Virus record (IMG/VR): IMGVR_UViG_3300041409_000348
Span: 39,564-103,563 of that record
Reading direction: 5' to 3' (one strand)
Length of the DNA stretch: 64,000 nt
Source: a virus
Part shown: piece after piece, positions 1,086-39,608 of the stretch
How positions within the stretch are numbered: the stretch's first letter is position 1
Layout: the number at the start of each line of letters is the position of its first letter
Position numbers and translations under genes: made by a program
Notes under the pieces: generated by a model
The model's input: only the letters and a program-made list of their open reading frames with translations
The model's database searches: none
What the model was told of the DNA's origin: nothing

Positions 1086-1355
1086 ATGGCTGCACTCGAC
1101 AACCTCACCGCCGCGGACAACGCCCTGAAGGCCGAGGTCACCTCGGCGATCAGCGACTGGGCTGCGGCCCTGGCCAGCGCGAACTCCGCGAACGACCCGG
1201 CGATCCAGGCCGTCGCGGATGACATGAATTCGCAGGTCGCTGCTCTGCAGGCCGCCGACCCGGCGAACGTCCCGGCCTCCACGCCGCCGGCTGCCCCGGC
1301 CGCGCCTGACGCCGGCACCGCAGCGCCGGTCAGCCCCGCCGGCACCTCCAACTAG
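1086..1355 (+). CDS. hypothetical coiled-coil protein
   Basis: SD AGGAGG at 1075-1080; high-GC3 codon usage; alternative start at 987. Confidence 0.65.
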   Translation: MAALDNLTAADNALKAEVTSAISDWAAALASANSANDPAIQAVADDMNSQVAALQAADPANVPASTPPAAPAAPDAGTAAPVSPAGTSN

Positions 1356-5455: not shown

Positions 5456-5548
5456 TAGAATGGCCATGTTAAACCCCGGCGAGCGAGGGTGCGCAAACAC
5501 CTGACTCACTCCCGGGGGCGTTCGATCTGGTGAAAGCAGACCGACATG
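5456..5548 (+). promoter_or_regulatory. HNH cassette leader: -10 TAGAAT, long hairpin, RBS hairpin
   Basis: TAGAAT 5456-5461; stem CCCCGG...CCGGGG 5474-5517; 26-bp segment 5523-5548 identical to 24837-24862. Confidence 0.6.
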
Positions 5549-6421
5549 ACCAAGCGTACAGGCGAGGCGTTTGTCTACTACATACGCCGCGGTGACCTGA
5601 TTAAGATCGGGGCGTCGGCCAACATCCGGGTGCGGCTCAGCGCGCAGGCTTATGACGAACTCCTCGCGGTTGAGCCCGGGTACTTCAGCCTTGAGAAGCG
5701 CCGGCACAGGCAGTTCGCCGAACACAAGGAACCCCTGGGTCGCGGCCAGCACGAGTGGTTCAAGCCGGGAGAGACCCTGCTCGGGCACATCGCTGCGATG
5801 CGGGCACTCCACGAGCTGCCTGATCTGTCCACGCGCTACTGCCCGCGTTTGGGCACGACCGCACAGGCCATACTGGCGCTGCTGCCGCCGCTACTGATGC
5901 AAGTTCCGGCCGGCACGATGGAGCGGCTCATAGCCAAGATCGTCATCGACGGCGAGTCGGGATGCTGGAGACGCCCCGTCGGGATCAGCGCCAAGGGCTA
6001 CAGCCAGTTCTGGTTCGGCGGCAAACTGCAAGCAGCGCACCGCGTCTCGCACATCCTGTTCGTCGGCCCCATTCCGGACGGCCACGAGGTCGATCACGTT
6101 AAGGCGCGCGGATGCCGGTTCAAGGACTGCATCCGGCCATCTCACCTTGAAGCCGTGACCGGGCGCGAGAACACACTGCGCGGCGGCAACATGGCCGCCA
6201 TTCACGCCCGCACGACACACTGCCCGCAGGACCACGAGTACACGCCCGAGAACACGTACTTGATCAAGTCCCCAAACGGCAGGGATCGACGCCAGTGCAA
6301 GATCTGCACCAGGGAAAAGGCGCACGAGCGGCATCATCGGCTCAAGACCGACCCGGCATTCCGCGAGACGCGCCGCCTGGGACAACTCAACCGACGGACG
6401 CGCGAGCGCGCCACTAGCTAG
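5546..6421 (+). CDS. T5orf172/GIY-YIG-like + HNH endonuclease
   Basis: VYYIRRGDLIKIG...EKRRHRQF...EWF; AHRVSH...VDH...CIRPSHLEAVTGREN; THCPQDH. Confidence 0.85.
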   Translation: MTKRTGEAFVYYIRRGDLIKIGASANIRVRLSAQAYDELLAVEPGYFSLEKRRHRQFAEHKEPLGRGQHEWFKPGETLLGHIAAMRALHELPDLSTRYCPRLGTTAQAILALLPPLLMQVPAGTMERLIAKIVIDGESGCWRRPVGISAKGYSQFWFGGKLQAAHRVSHILFVGPIPDGHEVDHVKARGCRFKDCIRPSHLEAVTGRENTLRGGNMAAIHARTTHCPQDHEYTPENTYLIKSPNGRDRRQCKICTREKAHERHHRLKTDPAFRETRRLGQLNRRTRERATS

Positions 6422-6442: not shown

Positions 6443-7985
6443 ATGTCACCCCAAGACCCCCAGAAGGCGCGGATCGTGGCGTTCCCCGACTTGAAGCCGG
6501 CGACACGCCATGACCTTATGCGCGGGGAGCTCGGCACCGAGTTCGACCGCAACCAGATGTTCGGCCTGTACTCGGGTGGTGATGTCTTCTTAGTCCGACT
6601 ACGGCACCGCCACTGCCCGGGACTTCCAGACCATGCTCAGCCGCGACGGCCAGGCCGCGGCGCTCGAGGCGGTCCTGACGCTGCCGATCCGGCAGGCGTC
6701 CCGCGCGATCGAGCCCGGCAAGAACGACAGCGGCGAGGCCGATTTCTGCCACTCGGTGCTGTTCGCGCCGCACACCTCGGGCGGCATGAGCACCCCGATG
6801 CAGGACGTGATCGGGCAGGTCACCTCGGCGCAGATTTTCAAGCTCGCCTTCTTTGAGCTCTGCTGGAAGATCCGGGAGCGGGACGGCGGGGTCGCCATCG
6901 ACAAGATGGCCTACCGGCCGCCGGCGACCTGTGAGCTGAAGCGGGACGCCCGCACGGGCGCGATGGACGGGTTCCGGCAGCAGGTGTGGCAGTTCGGCGG
7001 CAACCTCAAGCAGGACAAGGCATCCAAACTGCCCGGCTACGTCGAGATCCCCAAGATCAAGTCGTATGTCCACGTCAACGGCCGGCACCGGCAGCCCCTC
7101 ACCGGCACCAGTGAGCTTGAGCTGACGCACTGGGTCCACCAGACCAAGCTCAAATTGCTGTACCTCTGGTTCCAGTTCCTGGAGCAGCAGAGCCTGCCGA
7201 AGGTCATCGTGTACGGCCAGGACCAGCGGGAAGCCAACGCGAAGGCCGACGACATCGCCTCGATGCGATCGTCCGGTGTCGTGGGGTTCGCCCGCGACCC
7301 GCAGGGCGCCAAGTCGTTTGAGATCCTGGAGTCCTCGGGCTCGAAGGGTGCCACTCAGTTCGCTGACGCCCTGTCGTTCCTTGAAACGTGGCAGACCGCG
7401 AGCGTCCTGGCCGGGTTCACGGGCCTGTCCTCGCTCGCGGCGATGGGCCGCGGTTCCCTCGCGTTGTCGCAGGACCAGTCGGCGTTCTTCCTGAAGTCCC
7501 GGCAGGCCATCAGCCTGGAGATCGCCGAGTCCATCACCCACGAGGTCATCGCCCCGCTGGTGACCCTGAACTTCGGGCCGGGCGCGAGCTATCCGCGGTT
7601 CACGTTCGGGGCCCTGTCGGATGAGTCCGGCTCCCAGCTGGTCACCTTGTTCCAGGCTCTCGCGGTCGCACCCGCGTTGCAGGTGCCGGCGGGGATCCTG
7701 GACATCATCACGGAACGTCTGGCGACGTTCCTGAACCTGGACGTGGATGCGGTGACGCAGATCGTGCAGCAGGGTGCGAAGGACCGTGAGGCGCAGGCGG
7801 TCGCGCAGGCCCCGGCGGGGATGCCGCAGCAGTCGGCGGCGGCGCTGGGGCATCTGGCGGGGGGAACAGCGGCGGCGGCGGCGATAGCGAAGAAGGCTTT
7901 GGCGCATGCCGGTAACCAGCCACTGCCGGAGGACATCATGCAGCCGTTCGACGTGCCGAACATGAGCGTGAACCCGAAGGCGTGA
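6443..7985 (+). CDS. portal protein (DUF935/Mu gp29-like), split by a +1 discontinuity at TTA 6590-6592
   Basis: Position after terL; N-terminal part 6443-6589 and main ORF resuming at 6597 (DYGTATARDFQTMLSRDGQ...); main ORF in track is 6633..7985. Confidence 0.85.
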
Positions 7986-15913: not shown

Positions 15914-17149
15914 ATGCAGAATACCCCTGCCCGCAGGGTCTTCCTGGCGCGCAAGTGCCTAGATTGCCCGGTCCGGTTCACGCCCACAGGTGCCAAGCAG
16001 GTCCGCTGCCCGGACTGCCAGGCCGTGGAGAGCGCGAAGGTGGTTCGCGAGGCCCGCGCCCGGGAGATGATCCGCCGGAAGGCGGTCCGTGCGGAGGCCC
16101 GCCTCGCCGGTCCTCGCTGTTCCGTTTGCAGGGCACCTCTCCGCAAGAACAACACCATCGGCCGATGCCAGGAACACCGCTACATCGGTGAAGGCATGGG
16201 TGCCTGCACCCACTGCGGGAAGCCGGTCCGGCGCGACAACCAGAGCGGGTACTGCGAGGAGCACAAGTACGCCACCTCGCGCGCGCCGGTACGGTTCTGC
16301 GCCAGCAGTGAGGGCTGCGGCAGGCAGCTCCGGATAGACAACGAATCCGGCTACTGTGCGCGTCACTTCTCAGAGTCCCCTCTGTGGCGTGAATGCAGGG
16401 ACCGGTTCAACGCCAAACTGCGGGAGCAAAACCGCCTGCGCCCCGACGAGCGCCGGTTCTGCTCGGAGCCAAGATGCCCTAACCGGCTCCGCTCCGACAA
16501 CACCACCGGCCGCTGCGCGGGGCACGTCTATATCCCCGTGGACATGCCGGAATGCACTGTCGAGAGATGCACCAACCGCCTGACTGTGCGCAACACGACC
16601 GGCCGCTGCTGGGAGGAGCATCACGCGAAGTACTGGGTGGCTGAGCAGTGCGGCCACGTCGGCTGCGAGCAAATCCTGCACGAGGACAACAGCCTCGGAT
16701 ACTGCCACGAGCACCGCAGCGAGGCCGAGCAGCACCAGGAATACATGCGCGCCTACTACCAGAGCCGGAAGGCCGAGTTCCAGGCGTACGCGAAGGCGTG
16801 GCGGCTGGCCAACGGCGATGACCACCGCGCGGCTGTGCGCGCATGGAGCACTGCCAACAGGGAAGCCCGGCAAGCCATGCACGCCCGCCGGCGCACGCGC
16901 ATCAAAGTGGCCATGACTGATCTCGACCGGCAGCAGTCAGTCGCCCGCCGCAGGGACATCAAGAACAACCCCTGCTTCTACTGCGGGACCGCCGAGACTT
17001 CCGACACGGACCACTTCTTTCCGCTCGCCAAGGGCGGCACGGACCACTGGTGGAACCTCGTCCGCGCCTGCGACCCGTGCAATTCCCGTAAAAACGCCAC
17101 CTGCGGCACTGCGTTCCTGCTCCGCGCCGGTGGCCTGACCCTCACCTAA
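15914..17149 (+). CDS. HNH endonuclease with six tandem CCCH zinc-finger-like repeats
   Basis: C-terminal CFYCG...TDHFFPLAKGGTDHWWNLVRACDPCNSRK; repeats C..C...LR.DN..G.C..H. Confidence 0.88.
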   Translation: MQNTPARRVFLARKCLDCPVRFTPTGAKQVRCPDCQAVESAKVVREARAREMIRRKAVRAEARLAGPRCSVCRAPLRKNNTIGRCQEHRYIGEGMGACTHCGKPVRRDNQSGYCEEHKYATSRAPVRFCASSEGCGRQLRIDNESGYCARHFSESPLWRECRDRFNAKLREQNRLRPDERRFCSEPRCPNRLRSDNTTGRCAGHVYIPVDMPECTVERCTNRLTVRNTTGRCWEEHHAKYWVAEQCGHVGCEQILHEDNSLGYCHEHRSEAEQHQEYMRAYYQSRKAEFQAYAKAWRLANGDDHRAAVRAWSTANREARQAMHARRRTRIKVAMTDLDRQQSVARRRDIKNNPCFYCGTAETSDTDHFFPLAKGGTDHWWNLVRACDPCNSRKNATCGTAFLLRAGGLTLT

Positions 17150-19449: not shown

Positions 19450-19959
19450 ATGGGTGCCATGTACTGCCTGCCGTCCGACATCCGCTCCAACGTCGCCGGC
19501 ACGGACGCGGGCACGGGAACCTGCGCCATGCTCGAGGACGCCCAATTGAACGCGGCCATCGGGCAGGCCAGCGCGAAGGTCGGTGCCTACGTGGGCACCG
19601 CGTACGTGGTCGACGCCGCTGACCCGGTGATTGTGGTGCCGGATCTGGTGAAGACGGTCACGGTGCAGCTGGCCACGTTCTACGCGACTTTGACGTACCG
19701 CAAGGGCAAAGACCTCTCGGCCATGGACCCCGTTTACCTCGGGATGGTGGACGCCAACAAGGTCCTCGCGGACATCGCGGCGGGCCTGATCGAGGTGGCA
19801 CCGACCGCACCCGCCGACCCGACCGATAAGCCCGGGACGGTCATACAGACCATTCCGTCGATCTTCACCTACTCCGATAGCGGCGTCGTGCCGAACCGGC
19901 GTGGGGGCATCGAGGCGGCGGGCGCACCTGGTGCGCGGTTTGGCGAGGGCTGGTATTAG
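19450..19959 (+). CDS. head-tail adaptor (Mu gp36-like)
   Basis: YCLPSDIR...AAIGQASAKVGAYVG...VPDLVK pattern; position. Confidence 0.75.
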   Translation: MGAMYCLPSDIRSNVAGTDAGTGTCAMLEDAQLNAAIGQASAKVGAYVGTAYVVDAADPVIVVPDLVKTVTVQLATFYATLTYRKGKDLSAMDPVYLGMVDANKVLADIAAGLIEVAPTAPADPTDKPGTVIQTIPSIFTYSDSGVVPNRRGGIEAAGAPGARFGEGWY

Positions 19960-20519
19960 GCGACACGCCTCCAGTTGACTCCCCTTATTGCGCGGCTCAT
20001 GCACGTCGTGGAGATGCCGAACTCGTGGGCCAGTGACCGCTGTGATTCCCCCGCCGCGTTCCTGCACCTGCACTCCCTGACGATCGCCTCCGTCAGCTTT
20101 GCCCAGGAAGCATCATCACCGTGTATGAGCGTGCCGTCCCGGTCGCGGTCGGCACCCTGATTCTCGCCGTGCGTGCCGTACTGGAGATTGATCAGCCGGT
20201 TGTCCTGCTTGCCGCCGGGGCCGTGCAGGACCTCCATTCCCGGCGGACATGGCCCGACGAACGCGGCGAGCACCAGCCGGTGCACTGCCCACCCTTCCCA
20301 TTCGTTGCCCCGGTACAGATGAACGGCCACGTAACCGCCATTCCCTGACGGTCCTAGCTTGAGTATCCGGCCACCCCGAACGCCGCTCACTGTCGGGCGC
20401 GGCAGACTGCGGACGCGCCCGAGGTCGCTGACGTCGTACAAGCTTTCCCAGCCAGGAACAGGCAGCCACCGCTCGGCTTCGCCGTGATGCGGGAAGGGCA
20501 GTGTGGCAGGCTCGGTCAC
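19956..20519 (-). CDS. NUMOD4-HNH endonuclease
   Basis: ERWLPVPGWESLYDVSDLGRVRS; VHRLVLAAFVGPCP...H...DNRLINL. Confidence 0.92.
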   Translation of the reverse strand: MTEPATLPFPHHGEAERWLPVPGWESLYDVSDLGRVRSLPRPTVSGVRGGRILKLGPSGNGGYVAVHLYRGNEWEGWAVHRLVLAAFVGPCPPGMEVLHGPGGKQDNRLINLQYGTHGENQGADRDRDGTLIHGDDASWAKLTEAIVRECRCRNAAGESQRSLAHEFGISTTCMSRAIRGVNWRRVA

Positions 20520-20639: not shown

Positions 20640-21129
20640 GTGGCCTCAACCTTCGGTGACAGGATCGACACCCTCAAAGAGATGGTCGGTAGCGGCGATC
20701 TGGTCGGCACGGTAGTCGTAGACCAGGTGTACGCGCGCTACCAGCATTTACGAGGGCCTAGACCTGCACCACCCGCGCGGCGGCCAAGCGCTGTACCTTC
20801 AGGCCCCGCTGATGGAGAAGTACAGCGACTACCTGAACGCCTACGCCCGGCAGGTGCTCGAGGACGGCGGCGAGCAGTCGCTGATCGCAAGCATGGAAGA
20901 CCTCGCTGAGGACGGCGGGGTCGCCACCCGGGCGCCGGTCCTGTACGCGAATCTGCGGGCTTCAGGGCATCCGATGGTCGACAGTGACGGCGTGACCGTC
21001 TACGACCGGCCACCGCGGCAGCACAGGCTGTCCGAGGAAGAACTGCGGGCTTTGTGGCGGCTGCATCACCCGGTCCCGTCCAAGTACACCGCGAAGCAGC
21101 TCCGCTTCCTGTGGTCGCGGGGGATCTGA
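20640..21129 (+). CDS. neck/tail-completion protein (HK97 gp10-like), split by a +1 discontinuity at TTA 20748-20750
   Basis: VDQVYARYQH in frame 0 continues as EGLDLHHPRGGQALYLQAPL in the +1 frame from 20752. Confidence 0.78.
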
Positions 21130-21530: not shown

Positions 21531-21556
21531 ACCGTAGCCCGATGAGGTGAGCCGTG
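21531..21556. repeat. 26-bp direct repeat, copy 2
   Basis: Identical to 18402-18427. Confidence 0.85.
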
Positions 21557-21985
21557 CCCGTCGCCACCTCCGACGTCATCACGTGGATCACATCGCTCGG
21601 CTGGAACGGCAACCAGGAAACCGGCGCACCCCTCTGCATGGGCCCCTACGTCCCCGACTCCCCGGACCAGCTCGTCGTCATCACCGCTACCCCGGGTGCC
21701 GGCTACATGCTCGAGGGCGCGACGGACATGTGCGGGTTCCAGGCCCGGGTCCGCGGCGGCCAGTCCGGGGACGGCTCCACAGACGCCCAGGCGGCCACCG
21801 AGACGCTCGCCTACACCCTGGACGCCCTGATCTTCGCTGCCCCGTACCCGTTCGTCCTGAGCTCGGGGCGGGTGCTGGTGACTGCTCACCGGCTGTCGGG
21901 GATACCGGCGCCGATGGCGCAAACCAGTGACGACCTCGACCGATTCACCTACACCTGCTCGTATCTCATCGAAGTTTCAAACTGA
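21554..21985 (+). CDS. tail terminator / minor capsid-3-like protein
   Basis: GPYVPDSPDQLVVIT...FQARVRG...RFTYTCSY; position. Confidence 0.75.
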   Translation: MPVATSDVITWITSLGWNGNQETGAPLCMGPYVPDSPDQLVVITATPGAGYMLEGATDMCGFQARVRGGQSGDGSTDAQAATETLAYTLDALIFAAPYPFVLSSGRVLVTAHRLSGIPAPMAQTSDDLDRFTYTCSYLIEVSN

Positions 21986-24152: not shown

Positions 24153-24761
24153 GTGCCCGGTGCGCCCCTGCTCTATACCCCCCCGGCGTATACCGCCACG
24201 AACGTGCTCTACGGCGTCGGGGTCCTGTTCATCGCCCCCGTCGGCACTGCCGTCCCCTCCGACCAGAACCTCGGCGTCGGATCGTCGTGGGTGTCCGGCG
24301 GCTGGTCCTACATCGGCGCCACCGACCAAGGTGTGTCCCTGACGTTCAACCCGACGACCACCGACATCCGCATCGAGGAACAGCAGACCCCCGTCGCGGC
24401 CCTCGTCGACCAGGTGACGATGGAAGTCACCACGTCACTGTCCGAGGAAACGCTGGCCAACATCAACGTCGCCTGGGGCAACGGCGGCACCGTCTCGGTC
24501 ACCGCGGCCGGGGCTTCGCAGCCGGGTAAGAGCGTCCTGACGCTCTCCACGAACTTCGCGTCGCTGGCCTGCGCCCTCATCGGGAAGAACCAGCTCGGGT
24601 TCGCCCGCGTGCTGTCCATTCCTATTGTTATGAGTGCGGGATCGGTGAAAACCGACTACCGCAGGGCCGCAAACAACCGTAGTTACCCACTTACGCTCAA
24701 CGCGATTTCGCCCCTATCGCAGATCACCGTCACGGATCTCACGAGCATCGCCACGAGTTAG
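24153..24761 (+). CDS. major tail (tube) protein
   Basis: LFIAPVGTAVP...WSYIGATDQGVSLTFNP...IEEQ...SLSEETLAN; SD AAGGAG. Confidence 0.88.
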   Translation: MPGAPLLYTPPAYTATNVLYGVGVLFIAPVGTAVPSDQNLGVGSSWVSGGWSYIGATDQGVSLTFNPTTTDIRIEEQQTPVAALVDQVTMEVTTSLSEETLANINVAWGNGGTVSVTAAGASQPGKSVLTLSTNFASLACALIGKNQLGFARVLSIPIVMSAGSVKTDYRRAANNRSYPLTLNAISPLSQITVTDLTSIATS

Positions 24762-24785: not shown

Positions 24786-24862
24786 TAGACTGTACGAAAG
24801 TGGCCCGGCGACGTTGCAAGCGTCCCGGGCCGTGTCCGATCTGGTGAAAGCAGACCGACATG
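24786..24862 (+). promoter_or_regulatory. HNH cassette leader: -10 TAGACT, hairpin, RBS hairpin
   Basis: TAGACT 24786-24791; GGCCCGG...CCGGGCC 24802-24831; 26-bp identity with 5523-5548. Confidence 0.6.
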
Positions 24863-25474
24863 GAACAGCGTACGTGCAGCTATGACGGCCCCGGCGGATG
24901 CCCCCGGCCGCCTGTGGCTCGCGGCTTGTGCAGCATGCACTACCAGCGGCTACGGAACCAGGGGAACCTCGGCGGCCCACGGTCAACGGTCATCGCGGAC
25001 ATGGAGGAACGGTTCTTCTCCCACGTCCGCAAGGAACCGGGCGGATGCTGGATGTGGACCGCGAGCGTCAGCCGCGACGGCTACGGCATGTTCGGGGACG
25101 GCGGCGGCAAGGTAGTCGGCCCGCACCGCTGGGCGTATGAGCACTTCGCGGAACCAGTCCCGGACGGGCTGCAACTCGACCATCTGTGCCATACCCGTGA
25201 GCGCCTGACCTGCCCCGGCGGCCGGCGGTGCCTTCACCGGCGGTGCGTGAACCCGGCGCACCTTGAGCCCGTGCCTCAGAAGATCAACGTGGAGCGCGGC
25301 GTCAACAGCAAGTACGACGGCGACGTGTACGCGCCTCTCTACGCGCGGTGGCGGGCCGGTGAGGGGCAGATAGCGCTGGCGGCCGAGTCGGGGGTCAGTC
25401 AGTCCCAGTTGTCCCGGGCCTTTAGCCGCATCACTGCCGCTGTCATCCCGCCGCCGGACGGCGCCCTCTTCTAG
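24860..25474 (+). CDS. HNH endonuclease
   Basis: RGLCSMHYQR; CWMWTA...GYG; HRWAY...LDHLC...CVNPAHLEPV...N. Confidence 0.9.
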   Translation: MEQRTCSYDGPGGCPRPPVARGLCSMHYQRLRNQGNLGGPRSTVIADMEERFFSHVRKEPGGCWMWTASVSRDGYGMFGDGGGKVVGPHRWAYEHFAEPVPDGLQLDHLCHTRERLTCPGGRRCLHRRCVNPAHLEPVPQKINVERGVNSKYDGDVYAPLYARWRAGEGQIALAAESGVSQSQLSRAFSRITAAVIPPPDGALF

Positions 25475-38783: not shown

Positions 38784-39524
38784 TCAGCCATGTCGCCTCT
38801 GACTGCCGTTAGTGATGCCGGCGATGGTCGTCCGGGCCACCCCGAAGTGAAGGGCGATCACGCGATTACTCTCACCCGCCGCATGCTGCCGCCGGATCTC
38901 GATCACGTCCGTATTGGAGAGTTTGGCGTTCCCATGGTTCTCGCCGAGGCCGTCCTTTGACGGCACTGCCGCTTCGCGGACATGATCCCAGCATTCACCG
39001 ATGATCGCCCTCCGCATGGCTCCGAGGCTCATACCGAACTCGCGAGCCAACTCGGCATGCGTCTCCCCGGCAGCGTTCCTGCGCCTGCACTGCTCCACAA
39101 CAGCGTCGGTAAGCTTGGCGTACCAGTGCTGTTCGCCCTGCTGAATGGTCCCGTCCCGCACCTTGTCAGGACCGTTGTTCTTTTCCTTCGTTCCCCAGGT
39201 TAGATTCGCGAGCCGGTTGTCCAACTGGCCGCCACGGCCATGACACGCCTCCATGCCGGCCGGGCACGGGCCGACGAACGCTTCCAGCACAAGACGGTGC
39301 ACCGTTCGAGCTGTCGGGATGTTGCTCCGATGGAGGCTGACGAAAAAGTAACCAGGGCCGGTAGTGGAAGGCTTCAGCACTCGGCCGCCCATTACGCCTT
39401 TTACGGTCTGTCTTGGCAGGCTGCGGACGCGGCCAAGGTCGCTGACCTCATATAGGCCCTCGAAGCCGGTCACCGGCAGCCAGCGTTCGGCCTCGCCGCG
39501 GTGGGGGAACGTAGACTCGCTCAC
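38784..39524 (-). CDS. NUMOD4-HNH endonuclease with two C-terminal HTH repeats
   Basis: ERWLPVTGFEGLYEVSDLGRVRS; VHRLVLEAFVGPCP; DNRLANL; AKL.....I/CRR x2. Confidence 0.92.
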   Translation of the reverse strand: MSESTFPHRGEAERWLPVTGFEGLYEVSDLGRVRSLPRQTVKGVMGGRVLKPSTTGPGYFFVSLHRSNIPTARTVHRLVLEAFVGPCPAGMEACHGRGGQLDNRLANLTWGTKEKNNGPDKVRDGTIQQGEQHWYAKLTDAVVEQCRRRNAAGETHAELAREFGMSLGAMRRAIIGECWDHVREAAVPSKDGLGENHGNAKLSNTDVIEIRRQHAAGESNRVIALHFGVARTTIAGITNGSQRRHG

Positions 39525-39546
39525 TAGCCGGACCAGCTTCCGGTTA

Positions 39547-39608
39547 GGGCCTCCGGTCACGGTGTTGACGCACCGCGGGGGCCCGATGAATGTCTGGCCT
39601 CCATTCTA
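39547..39608 (-). promoter_or_regulatory. HNH cassette leader: -10 TAGAAT + hairpin
   Basis: TAGAAT 39608-39603; stem 39547-39584. Confidence 0.55.

Follow-up and report, generated by a model that had tools for sequence, protein, structure and literature searches.

Known cases of translational bypassing

Few recoding events are as rare as natural translational bypassing. Its textbook case is gene 60 of phage T4, and the actinophage case so far amounts to three terminase genes. The large terminase gene of the Streptomyces phage phiHau3 carries two 10-nt gaps with UUA-mediated bypassing, and the StrepC.1 and S. catenulae prophage terminases have a 7-nt gap; only 3 of 100 terminase genes contain gaps (PMC10732093). 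Bypassing at UUA was proposed by Smith et al. (2013) and the first experiments are those of Antonov et al. (2023): the phiHau3 terminase gave a full-length product in Streptomyces, and the junction peptide was detected by mass spectrometry in E. coli with UUA changed to UAA (PMC10732093). In the model favoured by these authors, scarcity of the bldA tRNA triggers the hop (PMC10732093; also PMC5009743).

[quoted passage not shown] According to Bonocora (2011), as cited in bioRxiv 10.1101/2022.08.31.505936, the 50-nt gap of T4 gene 60 protects T4 from MobA. The neck-module gene described here would add to the rare known class of UUA bypassing, with a shorter gap.

Genome, gene order and protein identity

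The source phage is an uncultured soil actinophage with a complete IMG/VR record of 103,563 bp, bounded by direct terminal repeats. Its G+C content is 68.8%, and no tRNA genes were found in the phage. The stretch of DNA analysed here (the window, 64,000 nucleotides) corresponds to bases 39564-103563 of this record, and coordinates refer to it unless the genome is named. The head-tail adaptor gene (19450..19959, plus strand; Mu gp36-like, PF07030, phrog_195) is followed by a minus-strand HNH homing endonuclease gene (19956..20519; NUMOD4 and HNH_3, from Pfam and PHROG), which lies directly upstream of the broken neck-module gene (20640..21129, plus strand, GTG start and TGA stop). Downstream are a small minus-strand ORF and then the tail terminator gene (21554..21985, plus strand), whose PF12691 bit score of 23.5 is just below the curated cut-off of 23.8. 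The major tail protein gene (24153-24761) lies beyond it.

In many relatives some 330 nt of conserved spacer lie between the adaptor and neck genes (L002:2629-3000, L003:2669-3000, L006:2650-3000, L016, L031-33); in the window the HNH gene occupies this place. A search of this spacer in the relatives identified no tRNA, no Rfam family and no convincing ORF.

Among cultured phages the closest relatives infect Streptomyces (41-47% identity), Marky and Intolerant being examples. In phages of this type the homologue is a single intact ORF of 148 aa at the equivalent position. Related prophages are present in Amycolatopsis taiwanensis and in a Frankiaceae MAG. The gene keeps its position between adaptor and tail terminator in relatives and, on this account (gene order only), its product is presumably a phage neck protein. 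The original prediction had used the same name on the strength of a sequence pattern; gene order agrees with it, but no Pfam, PHROG or fold match does. Indeed neither Pfam nor PHROG contains a matching family, and a sequence profile search of the PDB was uninformative. An AF2 model of an intact homologue reached a pLDDT of 78.7, and in fold searches with it (PDB Foldseek, BFVD, VIA wide) the PDB yielded nothing convincing (best Z 5.0). The sole BFVD match is an unnamed viral protein with 45% identity and a length of 148 aa, the length of the Streptomyces-phage homologues.

A 4-nt insert headed by an in-frame TTA

The junction at 20742-20757 reads CAG (20742-44) CAT (20745-47) TTA (20748-50) C (20751) GAG (20752-54) GGC (20755-57), which confirms the predicted break, including an insert that opens with an in-frame TTA. 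Frame A begins at GTG 20640 (VASTFGDRID...VYARYQH-L) and, if continued through the TTA, ends out of frame at 20909 after 89 aa. Frame B (+1), which reads ...YEGLDLHHPRGGQALYL..., stays open between 20722 and the TGA at 21127-29. The gene can be divided into three parts. Segment A (20640..20747, plus strand) runs from the GTG to the take-off codon CAT (His36), and its 36 N-terminal residues and start codon are conserved in all relatives. The insert TTAC (20748..20751, plus strand) would place TTA (20748-50) in the A site and provides the proposed landing triplet TAC (20749-51). Segment B (20752..21129, plus strand, +1 frame) extends from the resume codon GAG to the TGA stop and includes two motifs, HPRGGQALYL and RQHRL, which are invariant.

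A search with the joined protein retrieved 250 relatives, of which the full-length ones are typically 161 aa long. The intact 161-aa homologues share the pattern YAxxQH-E[GEHN]L, with zero residues between H and E. The window therefore carries exactly 4 extra nucleotides. Their deletion, which had been predicted to restore the pattern of the homologues, gives ...VYARYQH-EGLDLHHPRGG..., collinear with the 161-aa proteins with no residue gained or lost.

From these comparisons the break very probably marks a +4 hop, programmed or tolerated, at a hungry UUA codon. It is likely that the neck gene is functional and is decoded by translational bypassing at this codon, in the manner of the phiHau3 terminase. 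What the sequences show is the insert, its collinearity with homologues, the pattern of inserts across the family and selection on both halves; that ribosomes hop, how efficiently they do so and whether this depends on a host tRNA is what we infer. In the proposed mechanism, 36 codons would be translated from GTG 20640, leaving peptidyl-tRNA-His on CAU (20745-47) in the P site. The A site would then contain UUA. This codon is rarer than any other in these high-GC genomes, and Streptomyces-like hosts are expected to read it only with a scarce, developmentally limited bldA-type tRNA-Leu. During the resulting stall the P-site tRNA would unpair, the mRNA would slip by 4 nt, and the GUG anticodon would re-pair with UAC (20749-51) through U.G, A-U and C-G pairs. 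Resumption at GAG (20752) would produce the canonical 161-aa protein (...YQH-EGLD...), and decoding of the UUA instead would lead to the 89-aa out-of-frame product. The junction peptide expected from the +4 hop is YQHEGLDLHHPR, and that from a +1 event is YQHYEG or YQHLEG.

Insert alleles at related loci

Loci were compared as DNA in 16 viral, 16 metagenomic and 2 genomic cases. About half of the 30-odd related loci are intact and the others carry inserts of 4-13 nt at five codons, within a hot spot of 13 codons (VDQ-V-YARY-Q-H-EGL-D). The set of alleles read as DNA includes 21 members (17 from the neck gene, 2 from the portal gene and 2 from methyltransferase genes) with insert lengths of 4, 5, 7, 8, 10, 11 and 13 nt. 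Read in the original frame, all 21 inserts open with TTA or AGA, directly 3' of the last conserved codon.

The alleles are given below as take-off, gap and landing, separated by hyphens. Inserts after the V/I codon are GTA-AGACCCACCG-GTC (L004), GTA-AGACCCCG-GTC (L008), ATT-TTAG-ATG (L006), ATT-TTAGGGC-ATT (L012), GTC-TTAAAGG-GTC (L015) and GTA-TTACCCG-GTC (L083, 1590-1615). The last is in a prophage of a cultured isolate, Amycolatopsis taiwanensis DSM 45107 (NZ_KI912602.1). After Y, L028 and L035 have TAC-TT-AGC, a 5-nt insert (TTAGC) with a poor landing match. The Q codon is the take-off site in CAG-TTACC-CGG (L002), CAG-TTACG-CGG (L016), CAA-TTATC-CGA (L011), CAA-TTACC-CGA (L030-33), CAG-TTACCGCT-CAG (L009/10) and CAG-AGACGCG-CGG (L029). 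After H, the window has CAT-T-TAC and L006 an in-frame TTACCC. After L, CTT-TTAGCGG-CTA occurs in L012 and CTT-TTAG-CTA in L015, so that both of these loci, which also carry an insert after the V/I codon, use three frames within one neck gene.

Database proteins with 5'-shortened gene calls add to this series. P0060 and P0097 (74% and 63% identity to the neck protein of the window) begin with an out-of-frame leader ...TSIYEG. Since this corresponds to the frame-B reading of ACC AGC ATT TAC GAG GGC, both appear to share the CAT-TTAC-GAG allele of the window. Other protein leaders point to alleles of the L002 and L029 types. The leaders of P0058, P0065 and P0075 may reflect an AGA-headed +4 hop (NAT AGA C CAG; ..IDQHEG) and a possible TCA-headed gap (ATT-TCAGCCCCCC-ATC).

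Indels inside the gap distinguish sister alleles, yet the landing codon always sets the downstream frame. This can be seen among GTA-AGACCCACCG-GTC, GTA-AGACCCCG-GTC and GTA-TTACCCG-GTC, and between CTT-TTAGCGG-CTA and CTT-TTAG-CTA. A fixed +1 or -1 shift therefore fails to account for these indels, which follow the pattern predicted by bypassing. A programmed +1 frameshift at the neck site would take place either by a slip of tRNA-His from CAU to AUU with UAC then read as Tyr (QH-Y-EG), or by decoding of UUA as Leu followed by a +1 shift, which amounts to reading UUAC as a quadruplet (QH-L-EG), in both cases with a product of 162 aa. The 4-nt insert equals a +1 frame change, and relatives tolerate two extra residues at the same spot, as shown by the in-frame QH-LP-EG of L006 and QH-LL-EG of P0037. 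We nevertheless regard this reading as unlikely. [quoted passage not shown] Moreover, intact homologues have no residue at the junction, a +1 shift leaves the 5, 7, 8, 10, 11 and 13-nt alleles of the same hot spot unsolved, the portal site described below has a TAG in its +1 frame, and mass spectrometry of the phiHau3 product gave bypass and not +1.

The landing codons also bear on a split gene, in which a peptide of about 36 aa and a separate C-terminal protein would be made by internal initiation or re-initiation. Many relatives are annotated as proteins of 105 aa or of 132-134 aa, and some alleles at the first of the five codons land on ATG or GTG (L006, P0048). However, most alleles land on codons that are not starts (GTC, CGG, CGA, CTA, TAC), and the junction has neither a stop nor a ribosome-binding site. 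The first start codon in frame B, ATG 20812, is 3' of the invariant HPRGGQALYL motif, which such a protein would lose. A split gene is very improbable.

Further sites and TTA usage

The Portal_Mu gene (6443..7985, plus strand) is broken by a 7-nt insert, TTAGTCC, at 6590-6596. The junction is GAT GTC TTC [TTAGTCC] GAC TAC, with take-off at TTC (6587-89), TTA at 6590-92, landing at TCC (6594-96) and resumption at GAC (6597), and portal proteins of intact relatives read ..[DS][IV][FL]-DYG.. at this place. The new frame contains a TAG at 6591-93, which rules out a simple +1 slip and means that a hop must cover at least 7 nt. A +1 break at TTA had been put forward for another structural gene: the portal gene is indeed broken in like manner, but its insert is 7 nt long and neither a +1 nor a 4-nt change. 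The relative L037 has ACT-TTAG-GCT at a different portal codon.

A third site is in a C5 cytosine methyltransferase gene outside the window (genome 10471-10490, minus strand, site 10483; about 1972-1991 in L082), GGC TAC [TTAC] GAG GGC CTG. Here take-off and landing are both TAC, removal of TTAC restores motif I, and the Pfam match of the downstream ORF starts only after the first 20 positions of the profile. The 12-mer TTACGAGGGCCT is common to the neck and methyltransferase sites, both of which contain TTAC followed by GAGGGCCT. In addition, the DPPY methyltransferase gene of the relative G002 (the record of L003) contains, at about 103480-103510, CCG TAT [TTAG] GGC CTT GAG, a +4 site with take-off at TAT and landing on TAG. 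The two methyltransferase sites show that the phenomenon, although it concerns several genes as had been proposed, is not specific to morphogenesis.

A comparative scan for frame breaks against three related genomes of 100-110 kb, a scan of limited sensitivity, picked out no breaks in the present genome other than those of portal and neck; it also gave the G002 site. Four further candidates were dropped: genome 31233 (ATT TTA C) is in an intergenic or promoter region with an upstream 'frame' that is not protein-like, genome 81695 is an ordinary gene junction, genome 55474 is intergenic, and genome 9603 is a reciprocal match in a minus-strand gene region. A PHROG search of the 40.7-45.3 kb region gave nothing informative, and a DNA search of a phage collection gave no match.

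Crude gene models of the genome contain TTA less often than any other codon (13 of 25,316), with most of the 13 in doubtful ORFs that are either non-protein-like or antisense; this is the genome-wide count called for by the original prediction. AGA is the fifth-rarest in the same models (33 of 25,316). An in-frame TTA is present at each of the three frame breaks known in the phage genome, which, for the rarest codon, is more than expected by chance. The original prediction had noted no other in-frame TTA in the structural genes. Elsewhere in the genome there is at least one, in a small Phd/YefM-like gene outside the window (genome 1297, in 1290-1300, minus strand), where an in-frame TTA (GTT TTA GTG) aligns with Val in G001. 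The UUA of this gene looks normally decoded, which suggests that the host is able to read UUA.

Every gap seen is near the 5' end of its gene, in approximately the first 13-50 codons. The gapped genes encode low-copy proteins only (portal, neck and methyltransferases, and terminase in published work); no gap was seen in a major capsid or tail tube gene. The portal gene of G005 (the record of L015; 15897-18375) is interrupted, between residues 181 and 190, by about 1.1 kb through which a long open frame continues. It may correspond to an intein or another mobile insert.

Codon matching and selection

The triplet preceding the resume codon has a mean identity of 2.05 out of 3 with the take-off codon (21 alleles), and triplets shifted by -2 to +5 nt have identities of 0.33-1.05. 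When landing codons were shuffled among alleles, the observed value was never reached in 100,000 trials (permutation p<1e-5), a p-value that is optimistic because the alleles are partly related and not all independent. Take-off and landing codons also covary: CAG occurs with CGG and CAA with CGA, with a G.U pair kept at the middle position.

The window's own pair, CAU and UAC, is identical at 1 of 3 bases and pairable at 3 of 3 if a G.U pair is allowed at the first position. A TTAN insert creates a UAN triplet, on which re-pairing is possible from NAY codons only. The three +4 sites read as DNA take off from CAT, TAC and TAT and land on TAC, TAC and TAG, respectively. As all three take-off codons are NAY, the proposal of the original prediction that tRNA-His re-pairs from CAU to UAC is supported. 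No Shine-Dalgarno-like stimulator was found at the neck site, and the predicted RNA fold of 20700-20800 is no better than that of shuffled sequences (z = +1.3). At the portal site an 11-bp stem encloses the gap (z = -0.9).

Between broken neck alleles dN/dS is about 0.1-0.3, alike in the first 29 and the last 120 codons, and start codons are kept. For the window and L002 the values of dN/dS are 0.047/0.43 and 0.111/0.79 for these two parts. Purifying selection thus acts on both halves, which implies that both frames are translated in insert-bearing lineages.

These values also bear on the possibility that the gene is dead, either in a defective phage that recently acquired an inactivating TTAC or as the result of an assembly or sequencing error. 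The sequence comes from a single metagenome assembly, and in a scan of IMG/VR the exact 21-mer of the neck allele was found in no second contig. However, a 4-nt insert outside a homopolymer is atypical of sequencing errors, the same TTAC and GAGGGCCT occur in a second gene of the same genome, and P0060 and P0097 probably have the same allele. Analogous inserts headed by TTA or AGA at about half of the related loci, the selection on both halves and the completeness of the genome record point in the same direction. The break is neither decay nor a likely sequencing error, and we consider a dead gene or artefact very improbable.

HNH endonucleases beside the broken genes

Five HNH-type genes are found in the structural region (5546-6421, 15914-17149, 19956-20519 on the minus strand, 24860-25474, and 38784-39560 on the minus strand). 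Two of the five are directly upstream of broken genes: the copy at 19956-20519 precedes the neck gene and that at 5546..6421 (plus strand, PF13392) precedes the portal gene. The latter is missing from the relatives G001 and L039, which have an intact portal. The copy at 38784 is a paralogue of that at 19956 (61% identity). The gene following 38784-39560, considered as a further broken gene, has an intact frame.

The inserts might have originated as immunity alleles that disrupt the target of the adjacent HNH endonuclease and persist thanks to hungry-codon bypassing, a view of their origin that is compatible with bypassing as the mode of decoding. In the window each of the two broken genes has an HNH gene directly upstream, and the intact-portal relatives lack the one on the portal side. 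L011, the only relative with a homologue of the neck-locus HNH at the equivalent place, also has an insert. Furthermore, inserts are concentrated in the 40 bp of highest conservation, near the 5' end beside the HNH gene, and protection against MobA by the gap of T4 gene 60 is a precedent. Against this, of the broken neck alleles (about 14) only 2 have an adjoining HNH gene, none was found beside the C5 methyltransferase site, and the three further HNH genes of the window have no detectable broken neighbour. A strict association was rejected as a general rule, as the insert-bearing L004, L009, L012 and L030-33 lack an HNH gene; several insert-bearing neck loci have no room for one. This origin is rather doubtful, and the HNH link would be a possible source of some alleles and not a rule.

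Comparison with known systems

Bypassing at a hungry UUA, the reading preferred here for the neck site, would extend hops to a much shorter length, with +4 as the minimum. To our knowledge, judging from the searchable literature, the comparative allele series is unpublished. At a single hot spot it approaches a natural mutagenesis, in which gap length is free, TTA and AGA can replace each other, and the landing codon covaries with the take-off codon. Gene callers systematically shorten such genes, and many of the 105-aa and 132-134-aa 'proteins' in databases would be artefacts. The A. taiwanensis prophage offers a culturable system for the hop.

More tentatively, hungry-codon bypassing may be routine and population-wide in this clade of soil actinophages. 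Recurring UUA and AGA micro-gaps, perhaps scars of resistance to HNH endonucleases, would gate low-copy essential proteins by the supply of bldA-type tRNA. This wider reading covers dozens of polymorphic micro-gaps of 4-13 nt in portal, neck and methyltransferase genes. The regulatory switch envisaged in the original prediction would be the same as that already hypothesised for phiHau3 and bldA. Both bldA sensing and the possible link between homing endonucleases and bypassing become directly testable in Streptomyces.

The closest system is that of phiHau3. As there, an actinophage gene has an in-frame rare UUA directly 3' of the last conserved codon, a short insert whose length is not a multiple of 3 and which is missing in homologues, a junction without added residues, and take-off and landing codons that are related to each other. 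The proposed link to the scarcity of a bldA-type tRNA is also the same. Unlike in phiHau3, the gene belongs to the neck module, with portal and methyltransferase genes affected in the same clade, and the insert is of 4 nt, with one base between the take-off and landing codons. Take-off is from His instead of Gly, with no KGWG-like nascent motif and no convincing stem-loop or Shine-Dalgarno-like signal, and AGA replaces TTA in some relatives. Whereas 3 of 100 terminase genes are gapped, about half of the neck loci are, at five adjacent codons.

T4 gene 60 and MobA share with the present case the production of one protein from two frames by take-off and landing of the P-site tRNA, a gap about 40-50 codons into the gene, and an HNH gene immediately upstream, although this last feature is not general among our relatives. 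The T4 gap, however, is 50 nt long, begins with a UAG stop after the take-off codon, joins identical GGA codons and depends on an elaborate nascent-peptide and stem-loop signal. At the neck site we find instead a 4-nt insert, a sense TTA and the pair CAT/TAC. T4 presents one conserved cassette in a phage of a proteobacterial host, while here there are many small polymorphic inserts.

The byps of Magnusiomyces are similar in that many short inserts are spread across coding genes, with take-off beside an unused or rare A-site codon and a matched landing; they are longer, possibly mobile, mitochondrial and without a link to phages. Finally, as in the E. coli hops, a slow A-site codon and a nearby cognate or near-cognate landing site would suffice over short distances and with no elaborate signal. 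Those are low-efficiency laboratory events, whereas the configuration described here is natural, conserved and selected in essential phage genes.
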